A stretch of DNA of 60,976 bases, the filler included, from Dirinaria sp. TL-2023a (Eukaryota), in the NCBI GenBank assembly GCA_051941275.1. It is 7 parts of 7 records of this genome, joined end to end, with 100 filler letters (N's around TTAATTAATTAA, not from the genome) between each part and the next. Parts side by side here need not be neighbours in the genome. Positions count along the whole stretch, not along the records: positions 52,369 to 60,976 come from JAVEBF010001162.1; 6 more parts are not named here. One strand, 5' to 3'. Of this stretch, positions 17,381 through 60,271 are shown one piece after another. Under the pieces are notes generated by a model that was given only the letters and a program-made list of their open reading frames with translations, made no database searches and was not told the DNA's origin. How positions within the stretch are numbered: the stretch's first letter is position 1; each line of letters begins with the position of its first letter. Made by a program: the position numbers and the translations under genes.

Positions 17381-17480
17381 NNNNNNNNNNNNNNNNNNNN
17401 NNNNNNNNNNNNNNNNNNNNNNNNTTAATTAATTAANNNNNNNNNNNNNNNNNNNNNNNNNNNNNNNNNNNNNNNNNNNN
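17381..17480. other. Artificial contig linker
   Basis: N44-TTAATTAATTAA-N44. Confidence 0.99.
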
Positions 17481-19745: not shown

Positions 19746-20750
19746 AAATCATCAGGAAAGCAAGCATCCACACCGTCGCCAAGGAATCACGCAGCGGCAC
19801 AGAAGGAAGCGAAAGACATCAGGCATGAAACGAATGACAGTGCATGCAGCGAGTAAAAGAGAGAGAGAGAGAGTACTGGAGTGTCACAAGTGGGAGATGA
19901 GATGGAGAGGAAGCACAACATGTTAGAAGCACGTCAAATGATCGGCCTTTGTGCGGCTGGACTTGGTGAAGACCTATCAACGATAAGAAGAGATTATTAA
20001 TATTGTACAAGTGGACTAAAATCAGCCCTTATGCATGTGTCCCCAGCGACGGGGTAAAGGAGATACGGTAGTAACGGTACCTTCAGGCAAGGATCCAATC
20101 GCTCTCAGCTTCCTAGCACAGCCAATCACTTCTGAAGTCCCACTACTGAGGGATTGTGAAACGTTCGGTTGGCGGAGCCAGTCTGCGGCGCGTACTTGTG
20201 TGTACCGCGTTCTAAAGATGGACTGCGGGCTCGCGGCACATCCGGATTAGAGTTTTGCCGGACTCCCATCCTTTCGCTCTCGTATCAAGAAGCGCTGCCT
20301 CGATGATGCGTGAGAGACATGTAGCCGAGTCTCGAATCTCCATGGAATCAAGTACAATAGTTAATGAGACTGGCTTCGAGTCAAAACCCTTGTGCTTGCT
20401 CATCTCAGTTGCGTCGCTTGCTGATCACGAGTGTACATAATTAGGCTGCTTGAATGCAAAGGTGGTACTCGTAGCGACTTGTGGAGCAGCGATGATGAAG
20501 GGAAAAGCCAATCTTGGGATTGAAGTTGACATGTTAGAATCTGCAGTGTTATTCGGGAGGAACTTCACTTGTGGGCAAGCTCCTGAAACATGTACATCTC
20601 AAAAGACAAGGACTATCTACCGCCCTGAAGCATGCTCGAACCAAGTATCATCATCATAATGCCACTTCTACGTGCGCCAATGCACGCTCCACATGCAAAA
20701 ATCATCAATTGTAAAGGGTCTGAACGGAAGGTGCCATTCGCCAGGTCCCT

Positions 20751-26110: not shown

Positions 26111-26210
26111 NNNNNNNNNNNNNNNNNNNNNNNNNNNNNNNNNNNNNNNNNNNNTTAATTAATTAANNNNNNNNNNNNNNNNNNNNNNNNNNNNNNNNNN
26201 NNNNNNNNNN
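26111..26210. other. Artificial contig linker
   Basis: N44-TTAATTAATTAA-N44. Confidence 0.99.
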
Positions 26211-34837: not shown

Positions 34838-34937
34838 NNNNNNNNNNNNNNNNNNNNNNNNNNNNNNNNNNNNNNNNNNNNTTAATTAATTAANNNNNNN
34901 NNNNNNNNNNNNNNNNNNNNNNNNNNNNNNNNNNNNN
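34838..34937. other. Artificial contig linker
   Basis: N44-TTAATTAATTAA-N44. Confidence 0.99.
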
Positions 34938-37691: not shown

Positions 37692-38570
37692 GATGAGAAC
37701 ACCAAGTCGCTGGAGATCTGTTGATAACGATGGAAATGAACGTGTCTTGGCTCAGTCTTTTTCTTTTCTTCACTGGGACCCTCGAGTCAAATACATCATG
37801 GCTCGTTTTGGACTTCCCTTTTCTTGTTATCGACGCTCTCTGGAGTAGGATTCTTAAATCTTTGTCGTAGAAAGTGAAACCAGTCTGAGGCTGTGGAAGA
37901 TATTGGTGCTACTCAAACGTGTATATATGCCACGTTCGAGATATATGTGTATAGATTCTCGAATGATATTGGCCTGAGATGACTCAATGATTTGGATTAT
38001 ACAACCAGCAGGGAAGTAGAGTTTAGGGATCATGGGTGAGCGACCACTAGGTCATTGCGTGGATTGAACCTTTGATCTACTAAGGGACGTATTAGCAATT
38101 CAATCCAGCACGAGACAGTAGTATGTAAATGGTACACGTAATCAGAACTCCTTTGATCTTCATCGTCATTAAACCTTAGAACCGGCTTAACAAGCGTCAA
38201 GAAAACCCTATTGAAACCCTAAGAAACAAACAATCCCCGTTATCTCCTCTCGTCCTGTCCCATCAAATCGACACGGGAATCGGAGTTTGATTTTGACGCT
38301 GATCTCGGGTATCTCGCCGCGACTCTCTGTTTAGATGGTGTGGGATCTGCACCAACGCAGTATGCGTCGGAAGAATCGTCCTCCGAATCCGCGTACGATA
38401 CTTACTTTCACTATTAATGTCGCTAAAAATATTCGACATGTTGCCGTCATCGCGGTTTTTGGCCCTTGGTCGCAATGTCTTGGCGGCCTACTCTCTGTTG
38501 ACGCTTTCTTTGACGAACTCTTTTAAGCTGGCCTTTGCTTCTCTGCGCTGCTTTTTCAAGATTTTGGACA

Positions 38571-41500: not shown

Positions 41501-43388
41501 GGGCTATGTGCGGCCAGGAAAATTGACCGCGCTGATGGGAGCGAGCGGGGCTGGCAAGACGACGCTGTTGAACACACTAGCGCAACGTATCAACTTTGGC
41601 GTGGTAAGCGGTGACTTTCTTGTGGACGGTCGACCATTGCCCAAATCATTCCAAAGAGCCACTGGATTTGCGGAGCAGATGGATGTGCATGAGCCAACCG
41701 CCACTGTTCGAGAAGCCCTCCGATTTTCGGCTCTCCTACGTCAGCCAAGGGAAGTACCTATTGAAGAAAAATATGAGTATTGTGAAAGGATTATTGATTT
41801 GCTTGAGATGAGGAGCATTGCTGGCGCGACTATTGGGAAGATCGGCGAAGGCCTCAACCAGGAACAGCGAAAGCGAGTCACGATCGGTGTGGAGCTTGCC
41901 AGCAAACCTGAGCTTTTGCTATTCCTGGATGAGCCTACGTCTGGTCTTGATTCCGGCGCTGCTTTCAACATTGTCCGGTTTCTTCGTAAGCTCGCCGATA
42001 GTGGCCAAGCTCTGCTTGTCACTATCCACCAGCCTTCAGCTGTTCTCTTTGAGTATTTTGACGAACTGCTCCTTCTCAAATCCGGAGGTCGGGTAGTCTA
42101 CCATGGATCGCTTGGCAAAGACTCTCGTGAACTTATCAGCTACTTCGAAAGAAACGGAGCAAAACAATGCCCGCCTAATGCCAACCCAGCAGAATACATG
42201 CTAGAAGCTATTGGAGCTGGGAATCCCGACTACAAGGGCAAAGACTGGGGAGATGTTTGGGCGTCTTCCCCAGAACATGAGCAGCGTGGCCAGGAAATCC
42301 AGTCAATGATCAGTGAACGCCGCGGCGCCGCCTCAAGCGCAACAAACGACGATCGTGAATATGCGATGCCGCTAAGCACACAAGTTTTCTCCGTTATCAA
42401 GCGCGATTTCACCTCTTACTGGCGAACTCCTGAGTATGTGGTTGGAAAAATGTTCCTCCACATTCTCACCGGCCTTTTTAACACGTTCACGTTTTACCAC
42501 ATGGGCGACTCCACCATCGATCAACAATCCAGGCTGTTCTCTATCTTCATGACCCTTACTATCTCGCCACCGCTCATGCAGCAGCTGCAGCCCAAGTTCC
42601 TACAGTTTCGCCAGATCTTTCAGCAACGAGAGGCGAGATCAAAGATCTACTCGTGGTTCGCATTCGTCACTGGTGCAGTGATTGTGGAAATCCCATACTC
42701 GATCCTGGCAGGTACAATTTATTTCCAATGCTGGTGGTGGGGTGCCCTCGGACGGTATCGAACGCCTTTCGACAGCGGTTATACCTGGATGCTTTTGATG
42801 ATGTTTGAACTGTTCTATGTCAGCTTCGGTCAAGCTGTGGCATCTTTTGCACCCAACGAGCTGCTAGCCAGTCTACTCTTGCCAGTCTTCTTTTTATTCA
42901 TTGTCTCGTTCTGCGGTGTGGTGGTACCAGCTCGGGGCCTGCCATATTTCTGGCGCTCTTGGATGTACTGGCTCACACCGTTCCACTATTTACTCGAAGG
43001 ATTCCTCGGTGTTGCTACTCATGGCCGTAAAGTCACATGCGCCTCGAACGAATTTGCGAGATTCTCACCTCCGCCGGGCCAGACATGCCAACAATATGCT
43101 GGTCCTTACATCTCCCAAGCAGGCGGCTATGTTCAAGATGGCGCCAATGGTTTGTGCGAATTCTGCCAATATGCGACCGGAGATGAATTTGCTGCTGGCT
43201 TCAGCGTATACTACTCCCATAAATGGAACGACTACGGCTATTTCTGGGCCTTCACGCTCTTCAATTTCTTTGTCGTTTTCGTCGCTTCATGGCTGTATCT
43301 GGGCGGACTGAAGCGCATTCGCGATACATTTAGTCCCAAAGCGAGAAAGCAAAAGAAAGAAGCACTGAAGCTGAATGAGAAGGCATGA
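38571..43388 (+). CDS. Full-size PDR/ABCG multidrug transporter, intronless
   Basis: NBD1: GRPGSGCST, VSGGEKKRVSIAE, CWDNSTRGLD. NBD2: GASGAGKTT, LNQEQRKRVTIGVEL, FLDEPTSGLD. Each is followed by a transmembrane domain. The first ATG is at 38571. Confidence 0.98.
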   Translation: MADAQSRPQRPHVDDMPGMWPSTSANSFRQQYLAPVDQSQAQNGHSPGEESTHVSTSRDLSTDAAATNSTPAMEETSRMSSEKTQVPTPSGSPAVAGALDGANAGEPEEKDETATPPEPATEAPSEDEDDLEKGGFAPIKSGPAKSKPKRPGLTSETSRRMTGEDLFQALSRRRTNESGRQASYISPQVTHTEQELVEIERLLSRMFGKDRHEHSEEEKTRHVGLVFKDLTVRGLGLGAALQPTLGDFFLNGPRALAGLFGRGSTMSHKPPIRTIINKFTGCVRPGEMLLVLGRPGSGCSTFLKVLANQRFGYESVDGDVTYGGTDAKSMAKHYRGEVVYNPEDDLHYATLSVKNTFDFALKTRTPGKASRNEGESRADYRREFRKIVAKLFWIEHTLGTKVGDEFVRGVSGGEKKRVSIAEAMITKASIQCWDNSTRGLDASTALEYVQSLRSLTNMAHISTSVALYQAGESLYDLFDKVILIDEGKCLYFGPTEDAAAYFEELGFSRPARWTTADFLTSVSDEHEREVKDGYETRIPRSADQFEEAYRNSEMYKANQKDIEEFEAGLETQRKERLEARTKATKEKNYTLPFHKQVVACTHRQFLIMLGDKQSLAGKWGGVLFQSLIVGSLFYNLPRNSSGVFARGGVLFFMLLFNALLALAELTAAFASRPIMLKHKSFSFHRPAAYAIAQTVVDAPLVLVQVFIFDVVVYWMAGLSRTASQFFISLLILWIITMNMYAFFRMVGSMTKSLDIATRITGLSVQILVVYTGYLIPPAKMHPWFKWLIWINPVQYGFEALVSNEFYNFDIPCVAPALVPQGPGASPQYQSCTLQGSQPGQTFVTGSRYIKTAFTYERAHLWRNFGIIAGMWMFFVFLTMLGMEMQKPNAGGGAITIFKRGQAPKSVAQAMEKGSIPEDEEKAGAVVAEKIAEQESSESESEQPVKGVAKNESVFTYQNVNYTIPYENGERKLLNDVQGYVRPGKLTALMGASGAGKTTLLNTLAQRINFGVVSGDFLVDGRPLPKSFQRATGFAEQMDVHEPTATVREALRFSALLRQPREVPIEEKYEYCERIIDLLEMRSIAGATIGKIGEGLNQEQRKRVTIGVELASKPELLLFLDEPTSGLDSGAAFNIVRFLRKLADSGQALLVTIHQPSAVLFEYFDELLLLKSGGRVVYHGSLGKDSRELISYFERNGAKQCPPNANPAEYMLEAIGAGNPDYKGKDWGDVWASSPEHEQRGQEIQSMISERRGAASSATNDDREYAMPLSTQVFSVIKRDFTSYWRTPEYVVGKMFLHILTGLFNTFTFYHMGDSTIDQQSRLFSIFMTLTISPPLMQQLQPKFLQFRQIFQQREARSKIYSWFAFVTGAVIVEIPYSILAGTIYFQCWWWGALGRYRTPFDSGYTWMLLMMFELFYVSFGQAVASFAPNELLASLLLPVFFLFIVSFCGVVVPARGLPYFWRSWMYWLTPFHYLLEGFLGVATHGRKVTCASNEFARFSPPPGQTCQQYAGPYISQAGGYVQDGANGLCEFCQYATGDEFAAGFSVYYSHKWNDYGYFWAFTLFNFFVVFVASWLYLGGLKRIRDTFSPKARKQKKEALKLNEKA

Positions 43389-43555
43389 AATGAATGAGAG
43401 AGCTTTCACTGGTGAGGATTTGGCCGATCTAGAAGCAGGAATCCGAGTGGCCAGGATACCGCACCGACATCCAGTCTCAGGTTTGTGTCCAGACTTATCG
43501 TACTAGCCGTCAAGTAAACGCTCGGAATTCGAGTATTTTGCATAGTAATCAGCTA

Positions 43556-43655
43556 NNNNNNNNNNNNNNNNNNNNNNNNNNNNNNNNNNNNNNNNNNNNT
43601 TAATTAATTAANNNNNNNNNNNNNNNNNNNNNNNNNNNNNNNNNNNNNNNNNNNN
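43556..43655. other. Artificial contig linker
   Basis: N44-TTAATTAATTAA-N44. Confidence 0.99.
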
Positions 43656-43945
43656 GGGGGAAGGAGGGGGAGAGCGTATTTAAAGTATCTAATGTAATGT
43701 GGTGTGATCTGATGTGGTTTGAGCTGTGGAGGGGGGGAAGGAAATATCATGGGATCAATGAAAACAACGGCACAAAAAAAAGAAAAGAAAGAAAGAAAAA
43801 AGAGGTAATTTCCTCAGTCTAGCTAGAGTTCGCAGCAATAAAATAGTACATACAAAGCATCATCATATGAAGCCAAACCCGAAAGCTTTCGTGTTACCAT
43901 ACTCCTTGCTATCCCTTTCCCCTATTCCCTTCTCGTCCCTAGCCT

Positions 43946-46334
43946 TTACTTGCACTCCTCGAACACGACTCGAACCCCTTTGACCATGCCCAGGGTGAAA
44001 CAATCAACACTCCCCTCCAACAAGCCGCTCCCATCTTCCCCTTCAGCGAGCCGGATATCGAACCTCGAAACCAGCATCGCAATCACGGCGCGCATTTCCA
44101 TGAGCGCGAGGTTGCGGCCTATACATCCGAAGGGGCCTGTATCTTCGTTAATCGATAGACAAGTATATTGTAGCAGGGGCTTCCAAAGCAAACGGATACC
44201 TACCGAGAGAAAAGGGCGCGAAGGCGTTCTGTGATTTTACGAGATCGGGTTGCGAGGACCATCGCTCGGGGATGAAGTCGTCTGGGTTGATGTAGTGCTT
44301 GGATGCTGTACTAAATTAGATTATGCGAGATTCTCAGGGGTAAGGAATCAAGTGAGTATTTGGAGAAAGGGCGAGGGAAAAGACTGACAATGGCTGATGG
44401 CGTAGTTGGGTACCGCGACATTCACGCCTCCTGGTACATAAACCCCATCGACAGTTATGCCCTCGGACGGCGTGACTCTCTGCACTCCGGATGGAACGGC
44501 AGGATGCATCCTTAACGCCTCATTGATGACGCCATTGAGGTACTCTGCATTCTGGAAGTGGCGGACGTTGAACGGCTCACCAGCTGGCCAGATGGTTTTG
44601 ATCTCGCTTCTCAATTTTTGCAGATGCGAGGGGTTGGCAGCGAGATGGTAGAAGGCATGTGTGAGCGTCACAGCAACGGTGTCGCTACCTGCGACGACTA
44701 TCAGTCGCGAATCCCCGTGTAACCATCGCACTGCTTCTGCCGGGTTGTCTGCTTTCTCCAGATCGGCTAGAAGCCAAGACGTGATATCTGGGATTTCGGG
44801 CCGGAGTAGTCTCCGCTTCTCGACCTGCTCCGTGCACCAGCTGATGAATTGCAGGAAGCCTTTTGCCAGACCGGGCTGTAGAATTCGAGGCAGTGCGGCA
44901 AGGACGGGAATGGTCCAGACGACAGGCGATAGCATACCAAGTGGCAGCATGCCCGAATGAAGCATTTTTATGACGTGGTGCTCCTGGCCGTGGACGAGCA
45001 TCTCGAAAGACTGGCCAAAAGCGAGATCACCCATCACGTCGAAGCCGTAGTAGAGGAACCAGTCCGAAGCATTGACCACCTGGCCAACCCGCTGGCGAAT
45101 TCCCGAGACCAGCTGTTCTGTATATTTGGTTATTCGGCTCTCGTAGTCACGGAGAGCTTATATAGAGCAACGTTAGAGAAAAATATCGTTGGTAGTTGCG
45201 GGAATGCCAAAGCCTACCCCTCATACTAAATCCACGATCCCATATTTTTCGGCGCGCTTCGTGGGTTGCTTCGTCTCTCGCGCTATGCAGCGATTCGAGA
45301 TTCTGATACACGACATAGTCATACCACGGTGATTTTAGACATGGCGATGCAGGTCCTAGTATGGTAGTTTGCGCATTTGGTGAGATGATTGACAGCTCGT
45401 TTGGGCCTAAAACGGGAGGTAATTATCAGATGAAGGAAAGGATGATGGTGCTAGCGAGAAACATGCGAAGACAGCCAACAATGAATGGTATTGATGGAAT
45501 CGGTGAGATGAGGATAAGGGAGACTATCAATTGCTGGAATGCAAGCGGGATTCATTTTCAAGGAAAGTAGTCTACTGTTCTAGGTTACCTCATGTCCTCC
45601 GTCAGAGATCTTGGACCTGAGTGCAGAGGTACTCGGTTTTCCAAGGCTTGGAATAGTTCAGATACCTTAGGTATACCTATGTCTTCGGTTCCTTGAACGG
45701 GAATAGTGAATGCAACACCCTGGGTCGGCCAAGCCTCCGGCCAAAATGCCCGATCTTTCCTACAAACCGCGCGAAGGTGGGATAAGGTAAGGCATATTAC
45801 ATATGTGAATCTGGACCCTTGGAAAAGGGGTGTTGGGTACCGCATCCGCCCATGAGAGAAGTGGCGTCAATTTGGCTTGCAGATTGGAAAATCGACAAGC
45901 TGATGCTGAATGCAACCGAAATGTGGCTTACCTATTCGAACAAAGTCGCCATACTGCTCATGCCATCTAGCGCGCACTTTGTGGTTGTCCATGCGGTAAC
46001 AGCATAGTGAGTGGTAGAATTTCGATACCTTGGCCAAGTGAGGTCCCGGGAATTGGCCGAGCCGGTGGAAGAAGACGCGGTAAATGACCATGCTGGTCCA
46101 TATGGCTGCGCAGTAAGAAGCGGTGATCGCCGCTGTCAACGTAGCGGCATCACCGAAAGTGAACCCTCCAAACTGGATTAAGCTGATCGTGGCGATCGGC
46201 GGGAGTAGGAAAAATAGCTTGAGAAGGAGCAAGGCTTGGGTGTGATGCTCGCCATGAATGAAGTAAAAGAGGTGAGATACCACACCAAGAATAATGGCCG
46301 CGATGGCGCATGGGGCCAGCATCGCATCGTCCAT
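43946..46334 (-). CDS. Cytochrome P450 monooxygenase, five exons
   Basis: N-terminal membrane anchor, [18 protein letters not shown]-helix AGSDT, EALR (ExxR), FIPERW, heme motif FSL|GPFGCIG. Confidence 0.96.
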
Positions 46335-46475
46335 GTCAGGCAAGAAGACAGTAGTAGTCTACGAGTAATGGCGCCGTTCGTAGTCCTCCAGTGATTTTGC
46401 AGCTGGCGGACAACGACCTGGACAGCTTACACGTGTAGATTGATAACACAAAATGGAATGTTGAAAATGTCACAG

Positions 46476-46524
46476 CTAGAGAGATGACCTAGAGAGATGA
46501 CCTAGATGTACGACCTAGAGAGAC
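46476..46524. repeat. 13-bp tandem repeat (CTAGAGAGATGAC, ~3.7 copies) just upstream of the P450
   Basis: Read directly; the third copy is diverged. Confidence 0.85.
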
Positions 46525-47353
46525 CGGATATACCCGCCGTGCTTTATGACTCGTACACCGACTCACCCATCATGTCGATAACCCCAAATGTGGTTGCACA
46601 AAGGACGGCGGGGGGTTTCCTGACAAGGGGTCGACCTTGACTAAAGTAGTGACTTGCTTTGACAGGACGGTAACGCGAAGGCTCGGCATTTAGCGCCAAT
46701 AGAAGATTGGACTTTATTAATGTGTATTTGGGCAAGTGGAATACATTAATTATTCCAATTCTCTGGTGGGGCGGCATTAGGCCATTAGCCATTCCCTCTC
46801 TCCCTTTAACCGGTACGAGATTAACCGGCACTAGCGGCGTCATATGCGGCTAAAGGCACCTTATGGCCCCGCTAATGGGAGCCTATCGTATATCAAAGCC
46901 AACCGGAATTCTTCATCTCATCGCTAATTCTTCAGGGGGAAGGATCGATAGGCTCGCAAGCGACATGAGACAAAATAAACAATCTAGGCCCGCTCGACGC
47001 TCGTGGTTTGGCACAATTTCAGGACACATTGGGCGAGGCTTGGCGCGTTTTAAAGTAGTGTCCGAATCTTTTTCCAGAACCGCGAGACCCGCAGGGGCAA
47101 AAGGGTAATAAAACCTTACCTTAAGGTACCTAGGAGTAAGCACGGCATGTTCTGGTTCCAGGAAAAATGCAGCCAAGATAACCAGAGATCTACTACTGGA
47201 TCTTATTATGCATATTCCAGTTCAGCAGAGCCGTGGGATCGGAGTCGGGCCATAAGGCGTCCCGCCGAAGATCCACGGGAAACAATCGTCGATCCCCCCA
47301 ATTCGTGGTGGAAAATCCCACCCGTGGTGGATCATCCGTACTTGGCTGGTGAG

Positions 47354-47387
47354 GCGAGATGAGCGAAATGAGCGAGATGAGCGAGAT
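47354..47387. repeat. 9-bp tandem repeat (GAGCGAGAT, ~4 copies) in the divergent intergenic region
   Basis: Read directly. Confidence 0.85.
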
Positions 47388-48255
47388 ATCGTGTTGGACT
47401 GTCGTGGGATGATGTGTACAACTGGGCGTACGGCAGGTGGCCAGTGGCTAAGCGACGTCACGTTGCAGTGACGATACTGCGAGAGGGGGCCCAAGGGGGG
47501 GTTTCTTCTTTCTGTTCTTCCTGCACGGTTCGCAATAGAGTCAACCCAGCATGCTGGAAAACAGCCGGACCTGCGCGTGGGGGCTTGGGAGCCCTGGTCA
47601 ACCCTGGTCAGTTACTGGTAACCAACGTCGTCGAGTCGGATAAGCTGGCACGGAGCCCACTGATTCGGTCTCTGGAATTCCGGCTGCAGGTCATTGCATT
47701 GCACGCGCAGGTCGTGCCACGTCAATTAGTCCCGCTCCCACGTCCGAGGCTTGCGGTTTCAGGCAATGCATACCAATCGATCCTAATTGACGAGCTAAGG
47801 AACTAGCTCCGGGAGATCACTCGCATTGTATTTTCTGCACACATTCCTACTCCGCCACGCTGGTTTATCCTTTGCGGGCATGGCTTCGGTGGGGCTGGGA
47901 GCGTGGAAAATTGTTCGATCACGTTGGCGCGGCAAACAAGGTAAGGTCAGGCAAGGTAGGGAGAGAGCTAAGGCGAAGAGAGATACGACCTGACACCATC
48001 CCGGTCGTTGCAATGCGATTCTTCCTTACATGTGCAAAATGTGCTGAAGCGAAGCGAGGCAAGATCGGGAGAGGGCCGGTGCTATAAAGCATTCCTGTCT
48101 CTCTGACCCATTAATATTCAATTGACACGAATCTGTTAATTCTCCTGTGTGTGTGATCCAAGTACAACACAGTCCCACCAAAATTTCCGTGTGATTTGAT
48201 TAGGGTCGAATTGGACGTGACTGCCTTCTTGTACCCACGCCGCCGCAGTGCTACC

Positions 48256-49398
48256 ATGAATTCCTTATCCATTGTAGACCCATCCGAGAAATTGGTCAGT
48301 TTGCAGAACAGCATTGGCCTACCCAAGATGCACGAGACAGATCCCGTGCCCGAGAAGCCTGCACTCGTACCGGAAACCCCGGAACAGAACAAAGTAAGGC
48401 ACAGCTTTCCTTGCTCGTGACACTCGTACACAAAGAAATCGGAGCAGAGCATGGGAATAAGGTAGACGGCCTATACTGACTGTATGGTTACACAGGCTCC
48501 AGCCGACGTGCCGACATCGTATCATCTTCAGACCATCTGGCTCTTTACACGCAACGATCTTAAGTCAATCGTGTTCCCAGAAACCGCCTTTGGCATATTC
48601 AGTGCTCTCTCGGGTCCAGTGCTCACCGCAAACGCGTCTCCTCACCTCTTGTCAACCCTAGGCCGGCTACCGCTGGTTCTTGTGTGGTGCTGGATCAACG
48701 TCCTCATCTTCGACGTCGCCAATCAAAGGCTCTCAACATCGGTCATTGAGGATTCCGTCAACAAGCCATGGCGTCCTCTACCATCCGGACGTCTGTCACT
48801 TTCTCAAGCCAGGCGTTTCTTGCTCCTCATCCTGCCCATCGGATTCGTGGCTACAATGTACCTTGGCGGTCTAGAGGAGACCGTGGCTATGATGGTTCTG
48901 ACGTGGATGTACAACGATCTTGGCGGTGCTGACGAGAGCTACGTTGTGCGAAACCTGATCAACGCTTTTGGATTTGTCTGCTACAGCTCAGGGGCCACAC
49001 TGGTCGCCTGTGGTCGTGGGCGTTCCTCGTTTCTTCCTGTGACCTACGAATGGCTTGGCATCGTCGGCGGCATCGTCTTCACCACGCTGCAGATGCAAGA
49101 TATGGCAGACCAAGAAGGGGACCGAGCACGCAATAGAGGCACTGTACCACTAGTTCTGGGAGACTGGCCCGCTCGCTGGACAATCGCCATCCCGGTAGCA
49201 TGCTGGTCGTTGGTGTGTCCGGCATTCTGGCAGTTGAATATCTATGCCTACATCGTACCAGTGATCTGCGGCGGCACCGTTGCCTCCAGGATACTTCTTT
49301 TCCGCACTGTAAATTCTGACAAGATCACATGGAAGCTGTGGAATGTCTGGATCACATCCCTTTACCTACTACCGCTGGTCAAGTACCACGTCGCATAG
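48256..49398 (+). CDS. UbiA-superfamily membrane enzyme, probably a UbiA-type terpene cyclase (Fma-TC-like)
   Basis: TIWLFTRNDLK, FDVANQ..EDSVNKPWRPLPSGR, WMYNDLGG and QMQDMADQEGDRARNRGTVPL, with multiple transmembrane helices. Intron at 48394-48495. Confidence 0.9.
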
Positions 49399-51186
49399 TC
49401 TCTGGACAGCTTCGAAGACGCCCACAAGCCAACAGGAAATTCCTTAGGTTCAGCGTTCACAAGGCGGCAGCTCTTCTCTTGCATTTAGCTCCCGGCGTTA
49501 ACATTGGGAGCCTGGACAGCAGTATATAACGACTCACGACTGGATATGCTATGAGCTATGTGATAGAGAATGCGAAGGATATTGTTGTACTTTCAGGTTG
49601 CCGAGAGAGAAGAAAATGCCAGCAATGGGCCAAAAGTACAAGTAGCTTACTCAGCAAGACGCTTGTACCGTACATAATTGATTTAAATAAGGTATTGAGA
49701 AGCGCTCCTGCTGAGCTGATACATAAGTCGGCGAGATGGGCAAGTACTTAATGTTATTACTCCATTATCAAAGTGTACAAAGTCCTCAATAGTGAGCTGT
49801 TCAAGCGTATCAAACAGCATATGACAATCATACTCATCCTCTCTAACGAAAGAGACTCTGTGCATCATTTAATGAGTCAGCCGCGTACTCGTACAAGCAT
49901 GGATCATCGCTCTTGAAATTTGAACGAGTTGTATCCGAACTCTCCTATTACATAAGCCCTGACTCCCTGGCCCATTTTACTTGTTGGGATTTCGCTTATA
50001 CCTAGCGTCTTGGCATGGTTACGTGTATTTAAGGGGCCGAGGCGGGCCAAATCCTCCTGGCAATTATTCTAACCTCAGTGTCATCAAAAATGTCAATTTC
50101 CAACACTACCCTCAATGTTTTGGGGTTAGGGTCACGCCACAAAGTCGTTCTCGATATCAATGGAAAGATTTCTGATTTCACTTTATCTGCAGTTTCGTAC
50201 CAATGCCGAATTGACTGAATGCGATATGTCTATTATCAAGAACCTTATAACTTTTTGGAAGCTCAGACGAACAAATTATTCCAATGTGTTGAGAAAGACT
50301 TTTATGCTATAATTCTAATCCTAGCTCCATGAGGGGACGAGTCAATGGCCTTTTTGGACCTAGGTAGTAGGTACATGTATGCGGAGAAGAAGGTAGATCT
50401 GATAGTCTATTGCTACGACTCGAGCCATGTTAACATCAACTTGGTGCGTCGTCGGATTTTGCTGCACATTGCCTCGTATGTCCGTCGTGCAGGTCAAGCC
50501 TAGATAGTGGAGAATAGGGAGCTATGGAACGGTGTATTGGTACGATCCATGGACTCCGGCCTTCAATGAGGGCCAGTTGAGCATATGGGCGTCAAGCGCG
50601 CCACAGAACGTGGCTTCAGTCAATCCCTTGCTCGAGGTGTGGCTACATGCTCAAGGTTTGTGAGTCAAAAGTCTCATGGCTATTTCAGGAAAACAAGATA
50701 CAGTCTATTCGTTTGTGACCTCTTTACGGCCTTTTTGGCCTAAGGTAGCCCAGATGTTGGTAACATGTGCCTTGGCCAGGATCCCCTGATCAAGTTCCAC
50801 AAGACTGCGCTGCTACTATACTTCGTAGAAATATAGTTTTTCACTAGACTCATTGCGCTTGGAATTTAAAGGCAATGGTCGTCTTGGTTTGATATTGCTG
50901 GCTAGCGAAGCTGCAAAATATTAATTCTAGATTCATGTTTCATCGCCCTGTCTACATGTAACCTAATAGTTCTTGTGCTACTTCACTTCATGTCAGGCCT
51001 CTCACAGCCTGCTAGATCTGTCTAAGCATTCCTGTCTTTCCATCCAAACTCCAGTCGAGCCTTACACTTTGAAGGCTATCGACGCCATGACCAAGAGCAC
51101 CTTGACGTCACCTCAAGATCCATCTGCTCCCGTTACGAAGACGCTGCCTTCTCAAACATGTCGGGTGGCGTGTTCGCATAGGACCA

Positions 51187-51860
51187 TGGATCGACAGTAC
51201 GGGAATCACGATGTCCCATTTGTTGTCGCGATCCAGACTTGGAGTACACCTATCTTTACAATCAAGACGAAGATGAGGAAATTCCGATTGATGTCGAATG
51301 TGAGGTTGTGCAAAACTAGCCACAGTAGAAGCTCTCTATTCGGAATGAGACTAAACCTGAAATCAATCTGTTTCCGTGGATCTCGAAGGCCATCGCGAAC
51401 ACGGAATATGATGTCGAACAAATTACAGTCCTCAAGGCCCAGAAGCAGAACACCCTCGACAGCATAGTGAGAGCGCTCAATTAATCCAAAGAAACCAACC
51501 AGTACTGGCTTTGGTAAGGCGGTGATGGCGGCCTCTAGACACACCAGTGACATCAAGCCTGGACTTCCTTTCCTAGTCATTCACGAAATCGACCGAATTT
51601 CTGCCCTGTCTGTACAGATTCGAGAACTTACGATGTTCCCCTATTGCGAGCTCCGCTTCCTGCCGAAGCTGCAGGCCAACCTTCCCGGACCGCGCCTGAC
51701 TCAGACTCGAAGACGGCTCTGCAGACCCTTCAACCCCAAGTATCAGTCCCTTTCGAATCCTTACATTATTGCTGGCATCGGTCTTGCACGCCCACAGCTT
51801 CAGAGTTTCAGAAACGCTGGTCACTACCGACGCGAGCGCCCCTTCAGTAGTATAGCTTAA
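51187..51860 (+). pseudogene. Degraded coding relic of unknown family
   Basis: One + frame reads protein-like (DPDLEYTYLYNQDEDEEIP..LFPWISKAIANTEYDVEQITVLK) but is broken by repeated TAG/TAA stops. Confidence 0.35.
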
Positions 51861-52268: not shown

Positions 52269-52368
52269 NNNNNNNNNNNNNNNNNNNNNNNNNNNNNNNN
52301 NNNNNNNNNNNNTTAATTAATTAANNNNNNNNNNNNNNNNNNNNNNNNNNNNNNNNNNNNNNNNNNNN
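52269..52368. other. Artificial contig linker
   Basis: N44-TTAATTAATTAA-N44. Confidence 0.99.
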
Positions 52369-52969: not shown

Positions 52970-55768
52970 TTATCCGCGGGCTAGGTGGATAACGAGTTTG
53001 TTCGTCAAGTCGAGATACGGTTGCGGACTCGTAACATCCTTATCCAAAACCCGATACCCGCTGCCCACGAGCTTCTTGTGCGAGAAATCGATCGCGTTGC
53101 CAACCTCCACGGCCGCTTCGTAGCCGGCGCATTTGAAGTCCACCAGGTAAGTCTCATGGTCCAGCTGATACAGTTGGACGTCCATGTAGACGAAGCATGC
53201 ATTGTCCGCGGCACTGCCGGCGATCTGGGCTCCCGCTGCCGAGGTGGCACTGACGCTTGTAGCCGAGCCAGCAGCAGAGGCCAGACTGCCAATGATGCTA
53301 CCACGGCGCCGCGCCGCTTCCTCCGAGTGGAGGTCGACATGACTGCTCTGAGCGGAGTGCGCGTGTACTGCTCCGGGCGGGTACATGCCATCTTTAAGCC
53401 AGCGGACATGAATGCACCAAGGGTCTTTCGGGATGTATGCTGGTGGAGGGATGTTGGGGTCGACGTCTTCATCTGCCGACGACTCGGCTTCATCATCGGC
53501 GCCGACATAGTAGACTCCTTGGCGCTGCTTGTCCTGTGGTTCTCTAAATGCATTACTATCCTGGCGCTCGACGTAGTGGGATTTCTTGTCTTTCTCGGGG
53601 CTTTCAGAGAGCTGTGATTCGGCGTAGTGAGTGGCGCCTATGACATGGACCGGGTATGGACCAGGACCCTCCTTGGCATCAGGCTTGGGAGGTGTGACGT
53701 GCCATTGTGCTCCGAGTGCTTTGAGCGCTTTGTAGATGCACATCATGGCGTCCAGGGGCTGATTGCGGCTTCGAATACCGAACTGCCATTTGGTGTGTCT
53801 ATTCTTCTTATTACTCGTCTGAGGATCAGCCCCAGGATTTTCCGAGGCTTTGGCGAGGATGGTATTCAAACGGACAGTAGAACGAGAATGAGGATTAAGC
53901 CGACGGAGACCGGATTCATGCTCATTGGGATCCAGTGACAATTTGGAAAAGTAAGCCTGTTCATTCGCCTCCATAGGCTCCCCTTCATCCTGCATCTTGA
54001 AACGAACCTCCTGCTTCTTCTTCTCTTCCTCCTTCTTCGCCTTCATGATCATGTTGTGGTAGTAAGGAAGACTGCTCGTAAGGATCCCGACTTTGCTAAC
54101 GTACCCATCTGACTGTGGTATACTTGACAGGGGTCTCGAATTTGTTTGAGGATGATGTGCCTCGCCAGCTAGATTTTGTGAGTCGGCTTGTGCCTGCTCC
54201 TGCTTCTGAGCCTCATGGGTGGCAGAGAGATCTTCAACGTGAGCTTGAGCTGCTTCGCCGAGCCGGGACGCTTTGATCTGAGGCGTTGGGGGCATCTTAG
54301 GATCCCATGGCGGTGGAGAGGTAGCAAGAAACGGTTGTACATTATTGGCCGTCGTAAGTTTCGCTGTTCATGCTAGTCAGTATTGGATTGGAAAATGTGG
54401 TCACGTGAGGGCATTCGCTGTGGCCTAAGCGCGCTCGCAGCATGCAAACAGGAATCCACTCCTCTGATCATGCGACTGCGCGAACTGAAGCAGAGTAAGG
54501 GAGACTTACGATTATCCTGCATGATCTGATTCTCACGAACGATCATATATGCGTCTTTAATAGCGTTGGGCTCATCTTTCCTCAGCGCGTCTTGGACATC
54601 GTCCTTGGCGTAGCCCATGGTCTTGCCCAATTTACCAATCACAGATTCATGGATTTGTTCTTGAACTGCGGGAGGCTTGCCAGGAGCGAGCTTGCGTGGG
54701 TCTATCGCCTTATTTGGATCGACACCAGTGTCAATGAATTCCTCCACAGGTTGCTTAAGGTAGTCCTCTAGATCTTCGTTGAACCATGGGTCTTGACGAA
54801 TCTCTTGAATAGTAAGCCGCTGCACGGGATTGACCTTGAGCATCTTGTGGATGATGTGCCGAGCGCCTGAGGATAAATAGTTTGGCGTATGATAGTTGCC
54901 GGCATTGATTTTCTTGAACAGGGCGGGTATAAATTCATCGTCAAACGGAAGCCGGCCGACAAGCAGCACGTACAGGATGACCCCGCAACTCCACACGTCT
55001 ACCTCAGGCCCAGCATATAACTTCCCAGAAATAACTTCTGGGGCTGCATAATTAGGACTGCCGCAGCTGGTCTTCAGGAAGTTGCCATCTGTCATGATGT
55101 TGCTTAGGCCAAAGTCGGCAATCTTGACATTAAGATCGCTATCAAGTAGCAAATTCTCCGGCTTCAAGTCTCTGTGCACGATTTTGTGGCGGTGACAGTA
55201 TTCAACCGCGCTCACGATCTGCTGGAAGAAGCGCCGAGCTTTGGCTTCGGGCATTTTTCCATGTTTCACGAGATAGTCGAACAGCTCGTTTCCTGCATAT
55301 TCGAGGACCATAATAATTTCTTGGGGCGTAGTGATGACTGTATAGCTACGTATAAACCACTTAGTATGAAATTCCGTCCGCAGCTGTTACAGGGGCTAAG
55401 ACTTACAGCTTGATAATGTGAGGGTGTCGAAGAAGTTGCAGATACTGTATCTCTCTTTCGACTCTCCCAGCCATGTCTCGAGATATGAGCTTCTTTCGAG
55501 ATATGATTTTTAAAGCCACCTCTTGTCCGCTGACGCGGTGCACCGCAAGCTTGACTTTCCCAAATGAACCCTCTCCAAGGGTCTTCTTGAGGGCATACTG
55601 GCCGATGCGTGGCCCTGCACGTCCGCCACTGGGAAGGTCACTGGTAGTGCTGTCCGAGCGGTGCGATGTATCTTTGGATGGCTTGGTCGGTCCCGGCCGC
55701 TGAGGGCGCTTGTCGGCCGAGCTGGACAAGGACATGGACAGCTCTTCATCGTCGAAACCGGAGGTCAT
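52970..55768 (-). CDS. SNF1: SNF1/AMPK catalytic subunit, three exons
   Basis: LGEGSFGKVKLA, REIQYLQLLRHPHIIKL, HRDLKPEN, DFGLSNIMTDGNFLKTSCGSPNYAAPEVISGKLYAGPEVD, UBA region, KWQFGIRS, QLYQ..YLVDFK. Confidence 0.99.
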
Positions 55769-57304
55769 GATGATTTGCGAGGGTCAGCGTCGTTTATGTA
55801 AGGACGGAGAGGGCTATCCTGCAGAGGTGTTAGTAAGCCGCCTCCTTTCGAATTTCTTGCTGATTCCCACGGCGGGATCTTCCAGTGTAAGACATACGCA
55901 TGGGCTTGAAGCCGCGCCGACATTACCACTTCTGTGCGGTTTGCGGTCTTCTCCGCGCCAGGTTGAAGCCCGATGAGCTAATCCTGGGAGTGTGTAGGTA
56001 CGCTATGCAATCTTAGAGTTTGACAGATGATGCAGGTAAAATCGAAAGGTTAAAAACGGGTAATTGAGTTCGTTGACAGGACCAGGGTCAGAACGCAATC
56101 GAAAGTGAGTCCTTAAGGGGGTCTATGCGGAGCTGCAGGTGTTGTACAGCAAGTCTGCTGTGGGCGTACCTAAGGTTTTGGAAGATTCCAGGAAGATCCA
56201 CACTAGAGAGTGAGAGATAAGATAAGATACGATACTGTTTGATGTAAGGTCAGGTACGAGTACAGTACTTACCTTAGGCTTCGGACACTTATGCTGAAAC
56301 TTCACCACTTCGAATGGGTGAGGCCGCAAGACGGAAAGTGTTTGAAGGTGCCAAAGGTAAAATAAGATGTGAAGGCTTGAGATGACTGTGGGTCTTCCAA
56401 ACCCAACCAGCGGTTCCTCCCGCCTGCTCCGCCGAACCGCCGGGAGGGCAAGAGCTCGTCAAGTATCCGCCAAGCCTTCTCTATCTTACCATTCTCATTC
56501 GGCTTTTCCATGATTACAATGTTGGATTGCAGTTGTGTCCTGCTGAAACCACCCTCAGGTATCGTCACTGGACACAGTATCTCTCGAGGTAGTGGAATCC
56601 AGCACAAAAGAAATTAGTCAACAAGCTCTGCAAGCTTGGGATAGTTTGCACCGCTATTCTCTCCACCCTAACCGGTGTGGAAATGAACGCAAATGTTTCC
56701 GGAATTCCAGTAGGAGAAGACAGCATTCCCCTTCTGGATCCTCCAACACGCACCCGGCCTTAAATTGGATTTTTGCTCATGGACACCACGCTGGAGAGTT
56801 ATTTTGCAACCTTGGGACTCCATAATGAAAAAATCTAACAAGATACAGGCTCTTTCTGATGATCCGTTTGTTCGATTTACCACTGTAAGGTTGAAGAGGA
56901 TCTAGGAAAATCATGGGGGAATTCGAAGGACCATTGTTCATTCTGTAGTCTCCTAGTACCGTCTGTCTCGAAGCATGAATATGCTTTGCTATAAACGATT
57001 CCTTACTGCATCATCATGTCTCAGGATGATATGTAGACCTTCTAGAATGTTTCATTGACGATGTATCTTTGACTTTGGATCAACCGATCCCTTCACTGTA
57101 AATCATCTCCTTCAATTCATATCACAATTGCCCCGCCGTGGCCAAGCAATGATCTCTGGCCATGCCAGTTTACTCAAAACGTGCTCGGTCTCAGCAGAGC
57201 TAAAGGGAAGCCATTGCACCTTTGAAAACTATCAGGCTTTAGCGTCAGCATTATTCAGACCTTGTTCCAGACATGTTTCAGAAGGCAGCATAAAAAAATA
57301 TGTC

Positions 57305-57402
57305 AGCCTCGAGAAGGATTCGAACCCTCGTCTTCAGTGGGTCCAGAGTCCACTGACTCTGGTCCCAAGCCCTGATGCGTTCCACCGCTACGCCACCGAG
57401 GC
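57305..57402 (-). tRNA. tRNA-like Pol III gene, copy 1 (98 nt); anticodon arm extended by a long hairpin; identity undetermined (TTG or TGG depending on register)
   Basis: Acceptor GCCTCGG/TCGAGGC, D arm GCGT-AGCGGTGGA-ACGC, T arm GAGGG-TTCGAAT-CCTTC. A box TGGCGTAGCGG and B box GGTTCGAATCC. T7 terminator just downstream. Confidence 0.8.
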
Positions 57403-57595
57403 TTGATTCATGAAGTTAGACATGCTAAAATCGACTATATTCATTACTTACATATTAAAGTAGAGGCCACTGCGTCGATAGCTAATCTTCTTCTGCGTTA
57501 ACATGATTTATCTCATTATTATTACGAGCATTACTCTGATCTTGTTCTAGACATGTTTCGATAGGCAGCACAAACCCAAAAAAAAAAAAAAATTC

Positions 57596-57746
57596 TGCCT
57601 CGAGAAGGATTCGAACCTTCGATCTTCAGATGACCCCTGCTCCTAGGAGCGATCACCCACCGCCGTAGCGGGGAAATCGTCTCGAGATTGGAGTTACCCC
57701 CAACCTCGATTGGTCCTAACGCGTTAAACCACTACGCCACCGAGGC
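57596..57746 (-). ncRNA. tRNA-like Pol III gene, copy 2 (151 nt); multibranched ~80-nt insert in place of a normal anticodon loop
   Basis: Same acceptor stem. D arm GCGT-AGTGGTTTA-ACGC, stem TTAGG/TCTGA, V loop AGATC, T arm GAAGG-TTCGAAT-CCTTC, discriminator A, T15 terminator. No YU-anticodon-R loop can be drawn. Confidence 0.8.
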
Positions 57747-57920
57747 TTTGATGAAGAGACTCGTCCTAAAAAAAATCATATCCATTACACGCATAACATC
57801 GTAGGGATTCAATGTGCTCTACATTTGCTTCAATATGGTTTACACCGCTACCATTGTGAGCATTGTTACTCTGCTCTCCTTCTAGATACTAATTTTGCGA
57901 AGCAATCAAAGCTAAAAGTC

Positions 57921-58023
57921 CGCCCAGGGAAGGATCTGAACCTTCGTCTTCAGGGATTGAAGTCAGCACTGAGGTGCTGCTTGCTCTCGCGACTGTACGT
58001 TAGACCAAATACGGGACTGTGTT
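57921..58023 (-). pseudogene. Degenerate third copy of the tRNA-like gene
   Basis: The 3' half is retained (CCTGA-AGAC-GAAGG-TTCAGAT-CCTTC-CCTGGGC). The A box and 5' acceptor strand are decayed. It carries its own insert hairpin CAGCAC-CTCA-GTGCTG. Confidence 0.65.
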
Positions 58024-59357
58024 CATGGCATGAGTTGTGCTTAAAATGGACCATAACTATACTTCGTTGCATACATATTCCAGCATGTAGGGAAATAGAA
58101 GAGGCACATCTTTAAGGGCAGCGGCAGAGCTGCACTCTTCGATGACGGTTATACGGAATGTTTTGTACGTCTATCATTCTAAACGATCCAAAGGTGTTGT
58201 ACGAGATCTTGGAACTTCTGATCATCGCTTTAGCTATGATAATCGTGAACATGTAAATCATGGATATGGGTAAGAGGAGGAGGAGGAGGAGGAGGAGAAG
58301 AAGGGGCACAAGCCCCAAATTTTTTAATAGAAAGGATCGAAGTCTTGCCTGCAACAAGTTCCACTGTCTATTTGATCCAGCTAGCTTACGCCAAGCGCAT
58401 TCACAATAAGATGCTACAGAGAAGCACAAAGAGCCTCAATGGCCCCTATTCGACGGTCCAGCCACTGGGCGACCTGCGCTTCGAGTGGAACACGAAGCCT
58501 CTCATCTGAAATCTCATGTCATGATCCTATCAACACGGTCACTGCTCTGCTAGTTGACAGATCTATGGAAATTGCCATCCAGTACTAGTTCCTCGGTTCA
58601 ATTGCAGAAACACCATTCCTTCATCCAAGGGATGCAGACTTGGAGGTAGCTCCCCTGTCCAAGAGCATTATGTAGCAGCTCTAATAGCATGATGCGAATC
58701 GCAGATCGTAGCTCGTGCTTGCAAACAGCAGTCGTTACCTTAAGCATTCAGGACTAGCTAGACCTCGGACTTGCCGCAAGATCAAGAGCTTTGGCGCTAA
58801 GATATTAAGCGAAAACCCTACCTTAATTTCGCGTATCCTAAGGTTTTTCATCAACGCTTCTAATCCAATTGAGCATGCTGTGTGAGGAGATCTAATTCGC
58901 CGATGCTTCAACTTCGCTCGATCTATAGTAAACACCGAGAAACACGTTTGTCTAATATATCAAGTCACGCGATGAAGAAGGACAATTGACTTGATCGTAT
59001 CCTTTCTTGCCGTGTGCCGCGCCTTCGCCATCTAGCTGAGGGACACTTAGGCAGGGCTGGACAAGTGTATTCGACATGACGCTTTTGCTCCATTATAGAC
59101 AAGACGGCTCGTCGCGATGGTCACTTTTTATAGAAATGGCGGGCAGATTCAGCCGCGAGATCTGGTACACAGCCTTGATGCCAATAATGGCCGCGATACA
59201 AAGAAAGTGTGTATTCCTCTCCATCTCATTTCCGTTCATCCATTGCTCTTCCTATATCTCGCTCTTTACAAGCGTTTCCTCTCGAATCGCTGCTATCAAT
59301 CCCATTTTTTTCCCCCGAGAACGCTCGCCTCCAGATAACTTCACTTTTCAAAAAACC

Positions 59358-60271
59358 ATGACAGTTACCTACCGCAACGGGATCTCAATCCTCGAGCTTC
59401 TCATATATGGACCTGGCCTGCCACTGGCGAACTTCATTGCCTATCGCCACGGCTTTCAATGGACAGGGGGCTGGCTGTTCCTGATCTTCTTCTCCATCAT
59501 GCGCATCGTCGGCGCCAGCTCTCAGCTCGCGCTCATGGGAGGGTTCAATCTGCGAGTAGAAGAAACATACGTTGTATGCAGCCAAGTGGCTCCGTCTTTT
59601 TTAATCAGCGCCAGTATCGGTCTTACGGGTCGAGCGTAAGTAGGCCTTTCCTCTTCTCATAATGCATAATCAACAGAGAAAAAGTCCTTCAAGACGTCGA
59701 GGGCGTGGTATTGTTCTTTTATGAAACAAAAAACAGAAACAATAACAAACTAAAAAATCATCAAAACAGGAACCAAAAAACCCGAACCCCTCTCTCATCC
59801 CTTCTTTTCCGCGGGGTAGGCCTCATCAATCTATCGGGCGTGGTTCTCGGCATAGTCGGGGGCGCGATTCAATCGTCCTCATCATCCATCACGACCGTCC
59901 AGCCCGAAACCAAAGCCGGGGTCCTCATCTTCCTCGCTTCCCGGGCTGGCACTTGCGCTCTTCTCATACTCACACTACTCAACACATTCCGCCATGGTCT
60001 GGGCGAGAGGAAATTACTCTATGCAGTCGCGTTCGCGGCGCCATTCATACTCGTCCGGTTGGTGTATAGCATTCTAGGCTCTTTTCGGGGCCGGAGGTGG
60101 AGTATTGCTACGGGAAGCGTGACGGTGTTCTTGGTCATGGCGGTGCTGGAGGAGATTATAGTAATAGTAGTACTCCTAGGGACCGGGTTGGCACTGATGA
60201 GGAAGGATAACAACAGCACGCAGGATGACGGCAGCAACCGCGATGTTGGACTGGCAAACTTGAGAGCATAA
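59358..60271 (+). CDS. Fungal integral membrane protein (~7 TM) of unknown function, two exons
   Basis: MTVTYRNGISILELLIYGP..RHGF..GWLFLIFFSIMRIVGA; intron ~59636-59769; then GERKLLYAVAFAAPFILVRLVYSIL..MAVLEE. Confidence 0.85.

Follow-up and report, generated by a model that had tools for sequence, protein, structure and literature searches.

What is a tRNA-type gene for when a structured insert stands where its anticodon loop belongs? This question is raised by a tandem array on the minus strand of a stretch of DNA from Dirinaria sp. TL-2023a (assembly GCA_051941275.1; the array lies in the part that comes from JAVEBF010001162.1). The stretch, called the window below, comprises 60,976 bases, and all coordinates run along its whole length. 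Two of the array units have the boxes, arms and T-runs of RNA polymerase III (Pol III) genes of tRNA type; neither has a canonical anticodon loop in the normal register, both carry an unusually stable insert in its place, and their tRNA bodies are more alike than their upstream flanks or their inserts. We tentatively favour the reading, to which we would give somewhat less than an even chance, that these are tRNA-derived genes that would no longer decode and would be kept for tRNA-like RNAs (98 and 151 nt) whose ends are processed but which are not spliced.

The array and its gene bodies are as follows:

57247–58100, minus strand: tandem array of 2.9 homologous units with periods of 291 and 325 bp, from alignment, direct-repeat families and flank alignments.
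57305–57402, minus strand: copy 1, a tRNA-like gene of 98 nt, from its match to the Rfam tRNA model (45.8 bits) and its fold.
57596–57746, minus strand: copy 2, a tRNA-like gene of 151 nt, from its match to the same model (44.9 bits) and its fold.
57921–58017, minus strand: copy 3, a relic, from alignment and pairing counts, with no Rfam or ARAGORN call.

Every unit has the same order of upstream region, tRNA-type gene, T-run and conserved downstream block, and the three can be aligned over their full length, as seen in a multiple alignment, in the direct-repeat families D1–D3 and in pairwise flank alignments. A 14-mer that contains the B box, GGTTCGAATCCTTC, is found exactly at 57313–57326 and 57604–57617 and with two mismatches at 57929–57942, always on the minus strand. 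At up to two mismatches it has four matches in the whole window (the fourth at 23298) against 0.43 expected, a number reached by none of 100 shuffles.

Copies 1 and 2 exceed the gathering score of the Rfam tRNA model (RF00005, gathering score 29) and so possess the cloverleaf arms of a tRNA gene; both align to model positions 1–71, with the nine positions 31–39 replaced by 34 and 86 nt, respectively. In copy 1 the acceptor stem is 7 bp long, the D stem 4 bp, with G18G19 present, and the T stem 5 bp, closed by a TTCGAAT loop; the variable loop counts 4 nt. The acceptor stem of copy 2 is identical to that of copy 1, its D and T arms are intact and its variable loop has 5 nt. Standard pairs occupy all 20 acceptor, D and T positions of both copies together with the four outer anticodon-stem pairs, and at the fifth position of that stem (31:39) copy 1 has G.A and copy 2 G.U. 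The A-box consensus of tRNA genes covers positions 8–19 and that of the B box positions 52–62. Both copies carry an A box, TGGCGTAGYGGT, and a B box, GGTTCGAATCC, followed by runs of seven and fifteen T residues (T7 and T15), which corresponds to the predicted layout of a type 2 Pol III gene. The elements that flank the two bodies are these:

57435–57440, minus strand: TATA-like motif ATATAG, positions −38 to −33 of copy 1, from the sequence and the flank alignment.
57776–57780, minus strand: TATGA, its aligned counterpart in copy 2, from the flank alignment.
57292–57298, minus strand: T7 run of Pol III terminator type, 6 nt past the discriminator of copy 1, read from the sequence.
57578–57592, minus strand: T15 run, 3 nt past the discriminator of copy 2, read from the sequence.
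57247–57294, minus strand: downstream block of unit 1, TGCTGCCT..GAAACATGTCTRGAACAAG..TAATGCT on that strand, with its partner in unit 2 at 57527–57574.

ATATAG and TATGA, some 30–38 nt ahead of their genes, are putative promoter elements, a role suggested by their sequence and position.

Copy 3 is dead. It retains 5 of 5 pairs in the T stem and 5 of 7 in the acceptor stem (with one two-sided change), and 2 of 4 in the D stem and 2 of 5 in the anticodon stem; its 5’ half is identical to copy 1 at 16 of 31 positions, no A box is left, two mismatches affect the B box, and downstream the T-run is T4 only. The Rfam tRNA model did not match it at E ≤ 10, nor did ARAGORN call it. A possible extra relic of a 5’ half at 57835–57851 (14 of 17 positions identical) fell below the local-alignment threshold of 26, the shuffle maximum being 23, and was taken as chance.

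These results bear out most of what the initial annotation had said of the anatomy. Rfam scores, boxes and terminators all point to tRNA-type Pol III gene units, the B boxes recur at the proposed periods of 291 and 325 bp, the flank motifs that it quoted are present in units that align throughout, and the identical acceptor stems, intact D and T arms, lengths of 98 and 151 nt and oligo-T terminators of copies 1 and 2 are all seen in the sequence. Its count of three units has to be corrected to two and a relic, and the Infernal/Rfam check that it proposed for each copy succeeded with copies 1 and 2 and left copy 3 undetected.

How visible such genes are depends on the search. When the whole window was scanned with Rfam, gathering mode returned copy 1 only, and a cutoff of E ≤ 0.5 returned copies 1 and 2 and no other tRNA in the 61 kb. 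ARAGORN in default mode found no tRNA. With introns allowed and its threshold lowered (-ps90) it made seven further tRNA calls with introns of 19–95 nt elsewhere in the window, including 1922–2224, 14063–14226 and 19645–19791; other extra calls lie at 28976–29084, 45920–46103 and 59767–59934. Because Rfam at E ≤ 0.5 supports none of these seven, they are probably false positives.

The sequences that replace the anticodon loop are the following:

57338–57371, minus strand: copy 1 insert, 34 nt between the 4-bp stem halves UCAG and CUGA, from the Rfam alignment and the fold.
57630–57715, minus strand: copy 2 insert, 86 nt, from the Rfam alignment and the fold.

The copy 1 insert folds into a rod, with a 4-nt bulge, a UGGG/CCCA helix, an A.A mismatch and an 8-bp hairpin with an AGUG loop. 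In copy 2 a GACC/GGUC helix continues the anticodon stem after a 2-nt bulge on the 3’ side and closes a three-hairpin junction, whose hairpins are one of 12 bp capped by GUAA, one capped by UACG and one of 4 bp capped by UAGG. Folded with their stem halves, both inserts are more stable than dinucleotide shuffles, with a z score of −2.95 for copy 1 (2 of 200 shuffles as good) and −3.92 for copy 2 (0 of 200). Neither insert is related to the other or to the tRNA body (shuffle p 0.15–0.998), apart from a UUGGG that each has close to its start (offsets 3 and 12) and for which a post hoc shuffle test gives p 0.028. Folds, shuffle scores and similarity tests together agree with the earlier claim that the loop region is base-paired in each copy while differing in sequence and length.

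No known RNA family was recognised in the inserts: Rfam gave only sub-threshold matches, the best being sR23 (13.6 bits; gathering score 45), and we rejected identities as a small ribozyme, snoRNA or miRNA, for which nothing beyond this sub-threshold noise was seen. An origin of the copy 2 insert as an inverted copy of the D arm was also rejected (best match 8 nt, p 0.15). By eye, 57661–57715 on the minus strand, within the copy 2 insert, is a stretch of ~55 nt (GUAACU...UAG) of the size of a short fungal spliceosomal intron, and without it the copy 2 insert would be about as long as that of copy 1; we set the idea of such an intron aside because splicing of the spliceosomal type is not expected of Pol III transcripts.

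Could the inserts instead be, or contain, ordinary tRNA introns? In fungi and animals the tRNA splicing endonuclease (TSEN) removes introns only between positions 37 and 38, at sites set by their distance from the tRNA body, and the 3’ site is bulged and adjoins an anticodon–intron (A–I) base pair, as described in excerpts of PMC10485636. We enumerated all solutions with a 37/38 intron that allow at most one stem mismatch and 0–2 nt between the D and anticodon stems, 1 nt being the canonical register. In that register copy 1 reads UCAGG / GCUUGG-C / ACUGA, with the hyphen at the 37/38 junction, and has neither Y32 nor U33 (Y, pyrimidine; R, purine); copy 2 reads UUAGG / ACCAAU-A / UCUGA and has none of Y32, U33 and R37. 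The two loops have nothing in common, five of the six positions 32–37 being different. Copy 2 has 22 solutions, of which not one combines Y32, U33 and R37, and in copy 1 the three occur together only in three solutions of the +1 register. Neither copy, then, is a canonical intron-bearing decoder with a 5-bp stem and a 7-nt loop containing Y32, U33 and R37, and in the canonical register both lack a normal anticodon loop, as the initial annotation had noticed.

The +1 register of copy 1 deserves attention in its own right. It reads CUUGGG-C, with a Pro-like UGG anticodon and a 23-nt intron, between the stem strands CAGGG and CACUG, which contain one G.A, and it leaves a 5-nt variable loop. The A–I pair and the bulge, absent in the canonical register, are here present as a 3-nt bulge, ACC, at the 3’ site beside a C32:G(−3) pair; in copy 2 the bulge has 2 nt and is shifted by one position. 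Physically, this register of copy 1 amounts to an anticodon helix of six positions that includes an internal G.A and exceeds by one position the length that the TSEN ruler expects. With introns allowed, ARAGORN calls copy 1 Pro(tgg), with other intron borders and a 14-nt unpaired variable region, and copy 2 Asp(atc), its intron being 58 nt and its variable region again long and unpaired; both calls are forced and their isotypes are mutually unrelated. The tRNA body, which we take to be unlike eukaryotic tRNA-Pro, presumably resembles more closely tRNAs that read codons starting with A.

From these data one might argue that the array contains atypical working tRNA genes, copy 1 being a Pro(UGG) gene with a 23-nt intron at 37/38 and a longer helix, and copy 2 being spliced in some unusual way. 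The C32-U33-UGG-G37/C38 arrangement of copy 1 with its bulge and C32:G(−3) pair speaks for this, as does the Pro(tgg) call, though its intron borders are others, and in copy 2 the GACC/GGUC helix with its 2-nt 3’ bulge and an AA on the 5’ strand bears a loose likeness to a bulge-helix-bulge. However, the +1 register requires either 2 nt between the D and anticodon stems or the six-position helix, and from the ruler as set out in parts of PMC10485636, TSEN would cut one nucleotide off in it. By our arithmetic a Y32-U33-R37 combination is found in one of three registers in ~18% of random cases. With the D arm imposed, moreover, copy 1 scores −42.9 kcal/mol as a rod and −33.7 kcal/mol in the canonical-like pre-tRNA fold that belongs to the +1 register, an advantage of 9 kcal/mol for the rod, and copy 2 offers no solution with the three loop residues. 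We regard working decoders of this kind as quite unlikely.

A second possibility is that the decoding function has been lost, and lost recently. Copies 1 and 2 would then be newly disabled pseudogenes of a birth-and-death tandem tRNA family whose ancestor had an intron and decoded, perhaps through a UGG anticodon. Copy 3 would have died long ago, and the other two would have decoded under selection until small indels disabled them, the lesions being the extra G.A helix position in copy 1 and insertions of 9 and 43 nt in copy 2. The graded decay across the array, with copy 3 a relic, is in keeping with this. So is the MAFFT alignment, which puts R-C-(9-nt gap)-UUGGG-R in the same columns of copies 1 and 2 and accounts for the excess length of copy 2 by blocks of 9 and 43 nt, and the UUGGG shared near the insert starts points the same way. 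The 3’ strand of copy 3, CCUGA, would form a perfect helix with UCAGG of copy 1, and few indels would leave no time in which decay of the arms had to occur. On the other hand, both copies must have been disabled recently and independently. UUGGG aside, the canonical 32–37 stretches differ almost throughout and the inserts are no more alike than shuffles (p 0.98–0.998), and if the alignment is left ungapped the copy 1 stem is one substitution away from the inferred ancestor, whose loop would then be non-canonical too. Decay does not predict the unusual stability of both inserts either. Decayed intron-containing tRNAs had been named in the initial annotation as a duller alternative; because copy 1 can be read as a Pro(UGG)-like intron-bearing gene with one extra G.A helix position, we treat it as the main rival, if a somewhat unlikely one.

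If the genes had simply been abandoned, arm pairing and boxes should be lost at the neutral rate. Such loss is found in copy 3 and is not found in copies 1 and 2. Between the latter, the body is identical at 57 of 64 positions (89%, one gap), compared with 68 of 114 (60%) in the upstream flank and 17 of 34 in the alignable part of the insert (52 gap columns), so that the body exceeds both the flank (Fisher p 3.1e-5) and the insert (p 4.1e-5). The arms are far better kept than flanks and insert, a point in favour of the initial annotation. Repeat-induced point mutation was considered as the cause of divergence and rejected, as the upstream flank shows 25 transitions and 21 transversions and no bias.

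Selection on the promoter as DNA could produce part of this pattern. The units might be kept as TFIIIC/Pol III sites, acting as a boundary or regulatory element of the tDNA type between two divergent genes, with the RNA irrelevant. These neighbours are:

52970–55311, minus strand: SNF1-type kinase in two parts, from long open reading frames (ORFs).
59076–60271, plus strand: DUF7702 protein gene, from a long ORF.

The array sits in the 3.7-kb gap that separates them, on the kinase strand, and its intergenic place ~2 kb upstream of the kinase ORFs fits such a role. The A and B boxes are the best-kept part of the body (1 difference in 23 positions), and the 48-nt block past the terminator is conserved like the gene itself: units 1 and 2 share 83% identity over 48 nt there, and 36 of 44 aligned positions are identical, a proportion not different from that of the tRNA body (Fisher p 0.40). 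Yet body positions outside the boxes are conserved too, at 35 of 41 (p 0.0034 against the flank), the acceptor stems are identical at 14 of 14 positions, and of seven substitutions in the body five are unpaired while the two at paired sites keep the pair (C:G to U.G and G.U to A:U; rough joint probability 0.007). Because of this conservation outside the boxes, the identical acceptor stems and the pair-keeping substitutions, the constraint appears to act on an RNA fold, and we consider a purely DNA-level role improbable. In the three-unit alignment standard pairs fill 87% of cells, compared with 36–52% when the partners are slid.

Several further observations concern the downstream block. In units 1 and 2 its start (CUGCC) could pair with the end of the acceptor strand and the discriminator (GGCAG / GGC..), which would place the T-run in a hairpin loop. 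A 19-of-20 match to the block (GCTGCCTTCT.AAACATGTC) lies in the same sense at 51143–51162, within an ORF at 50973–51467 (plus strand), and may be chance (blastn-short E 0.012). An ATG-initiated ORF of 85 amino acids at 57149–57406 on the plus strand runs antisense over copy 1 and the block downstream of it. Pfam gave no match for this probably spurious ORF at E ≤ 1, and a protein-coding explanation was rejected.

A mobile-element origin has also to be weighed, in which the units would be heads of tRNA-derived short interspersed nuclear elements (SINEs), long terminal repeats (LTRs) of a miniature LTR retrotransposon that bears a tRNA (Helenus/TRIMp3), or tRNA copies hit by a small hairpin repeat. 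A tRNA-like sequence whose isotype calls do not match is typical of fungal Helenus LTRs, according to PMC10886601, and tandem arrays of LTR, internal part and LTR would resemble a tandem repeat. Against this, T7 and T15 follow the acceptor stem at 6 and 3 nt and would end a Pol III transcript before any element body, whereas a SINE has head, body and tail in one transcript and is present as many dispersed copies with target-site duplications. No tail was seen; primer-binding site (PBS), polypurine tract (PPT) and target-site duplications were not searched for. The upstream parts of units 1 and 2 are only ~60% identical, and the 61-kb window holds no other copy: an unfiltered search of it with a covariance model built from the three units (R1, which scores copy 1 at 107.9 bits by construction) found those three only, the next match having 12.9 bits and E 0.24, and blastn-short found no further copy of either insert. 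In addition, PMC10886601 reports Helenus from Pucciniales and some Agaricomycetes and not from ascomycetes. An origin of this kind is highly improbable, and the SINE heads suggested by the initial annotation are disfavoured by the terminator directly after the acceptor stem and by the lack of any other copy in the window.

We therefore return to the reading that the array encodes non-decoding tRNA-like RNAs. As a model, a tRNA-type Pol III gene in the intergenic region that separates the kinase from the DUF7702 gene would long ago have been triplicated locally, in tandem, and copies 1 and 2 would retain what transcription needs, namely A and B boxes, the TATA-like motif and the T-run. Their transcripts would adopt the acceptor/T and D portions of an L-shape and could be trimmed by RNase P and RNase Z. 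In place of the 7-nt anticodon loop they would carry a long, stable extension of the anticodon stem, helical or branched and wholly different between the copies, so that the tRNA body would be the selected part and the extension free to vary. Transcription, end processing, the absence of splicing and any function of the RNA are what we infer from gene anatomy and conservation.

Several observations weigh against this model. Covariation, which the initial annotation had proposed to test, did not reach significance with three sequences, 144 of 500 shuffles reaching the observed score, and the sole pair with a two-sided change is in the relic copy 3. The array includes a dead copy, as a birth-and-death family would. 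Copy 1 has its Pro-like +1 register, and the UUGGG common to the two inserts could be what is left of an anticodon loop with UGG that both once had, or chance. Finally, because the downstream block is conserved like the body, part of the conservation may lie at the DNA level or reflect gene conversion.

A bolder version of the model would make the array a member of a fungal class of Pol III RNAs in which the tRNA body supplies promoter, RNase P/Z processing and stability, and the anticodon arm holds an exchangeable structured module. The modules would be the rod in copy 1 and, in copy 2, the three-hairpin junction with its GNRA- and UNCG-type loops, and the unit would include the 48-nt block past the terminator. 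We think such a class unlikely.

If RNAs of this kind are made and kept, a eukaryote would employ the tRNA fold to carry other structured RNA. To our knowledge, this use has so far been a laboratory trick, with looser forms in transfer-messenger RNA (tmRNA), in tRNA-like pieces of long RNAs and in stable tRNA introns. It would also mean that a new class of Pol III transcripts is missed or mislabelled by tRNA finders; at this array ARAGORN in default mode found neither of the two genes and the gathering-mode Rfam scan of the window one of two. If, instead, the genes are dying, the locus is an ordinary yet tidy case of birth and death in a tandem tRNA family, with a caution for annotation: a 45-bit tRNA match can come without any anticodon loop.

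The window DNA is nuclear and from an ascomycete; the protein neighbours of the product of the kinase C-terminal ORF are mostly from Ascomycota, its closest database relative being 84% identical and further relatives 62–67%. Long ORFs of the window encode a PDR/CDR-type ABC transporter, an adenylate-forming enzyme with a carrier domain, a sugar transporter and a UbiA prenyltransferase. Among these, the adenylate-forming enzyme with its phosphopantetheine carrier domain (35439–37088, minus strand), the PDR/CDR ABC transporter (38535–43388, plus strand) and the UbiA-type prenyltransferase (48484–49398, plus strand) lie within 14 kb (35439–49398) and may be part of a secondary-metabolite cluster. 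Immediately upstream of the array is a (GAG)8 microsatellite at 58274–58297, which is (CTC)n on the minus strand. The window also contains 12 runs of 44 N (528 N in total), paired 12 bases apart and recurring every ~8.7 kb, at 8646–8745, 17381–17480, 26111–26210, 34838–34937, 43556–43655 and 52269–52368; this regular spacing looks like a masking or assembly/processing artefact and not biology.

How does the array compare with systems already described? A limited search of the literature on fungal tRNA-like genes with altered anticodon arms, which is not proof of absence, found no described counterpart, and the 15-nt 5’ string of the gene had no literature match. Metagenome loci with a 19-nt 5’ pattern (n = 121) were rejected as relatives: almost all consist of high-GC coding sequence, a few are tRNA-like repeats of no relation to the array, ARAGORN called no tRNA in any of the 121, and the sequence is bacterial. 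Among mobile elements, Helenus (TRIMp3), with tRNA-like LTR parts in rust fungi and some agarics, is defined in sections of PMC10886601 by two LTRs with a tRNA-like part that enclose a PBS and a PPT, and by target-site duplications of 5 bp. Helenus and the fungal tRNA-derived SINEs (PMC10886601; PMC5063351) share with the array an A/B-box tRNA-like sequence of unclear isotype; in the array, by contrast, the terminator stands directly past the tRNA part, no element body or tail is seen and the window has no further copies.

Pseudogenes from tandem duplication of tRNA genes resemble the array in their homologous flanks, in having one dead member and in their disturbed anticodon regions, but copies 1 and 2 keep all 20 acceptor, D and T stem pairs and the outer anticodon stem, with a body at 89% identity beside a flank at 60%. 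The intron-containing nuclear tRNA genes of fungi and animals are likewise Pol III genes with A and B boxes, a cloverleaf body, a T-run and extra anticodon-arm sequence that pairs with the loop region. They differ in that the array copies lack Y32-U33 (GCUUGG and ACCAAU) and share no loop, and in that the introns of ordinary tRNA genes leave an open loop with a 3’ bulge, whereas each insert of the array prolongs the stem without a break, as a rod or as a branched junction.

Other tRNA-like RNAs also do without decoding. One, mascRNA, is freed by tRNA processing enzymes. The Arabidopsis GUT15 tRNA-like RNA has, from what the excerpted text of PMC6152437 conveys, a cloverleaf-like non-decoding body that is presumably a substrate of RNase P and RNase Z, as we propose for the array. 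Both are cut from Pol II transcripts and have no Pol III promoter of their own, whereas the array units appear to be autonomous genes of Pol III type with an extended anticodon arm. In hosts of stable introns, the spliced product is a normal decoder; here copy 2 yields no canonical mature tRNA and copy 1 only one in a shifted register. Such introns may carry a guide, as those of archaeal tRNA-Trp carry a box C/D guide, and unlike these the array inserts hold no C/D or other Rfam family. Metazoan hosts of tRNA intronic circular RNAs (tricRNAs) have, judging from part of PMC6614914, a structured and gene-specific module in the anticodon arm, as does the array.

By analogy of architecture, the closest system is the engineered tRNA scaffold. 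Its principle is that the acceptor, D and T arms are retained and the anticodon stem is prolonged by a foreign structured RNA. Such scaffolds (PMC3753655) have the same architecture as copies 1 and 2 but are man-made, and the class of exchangeable modules on a tRNA body, if true, would be their natural counterpart.

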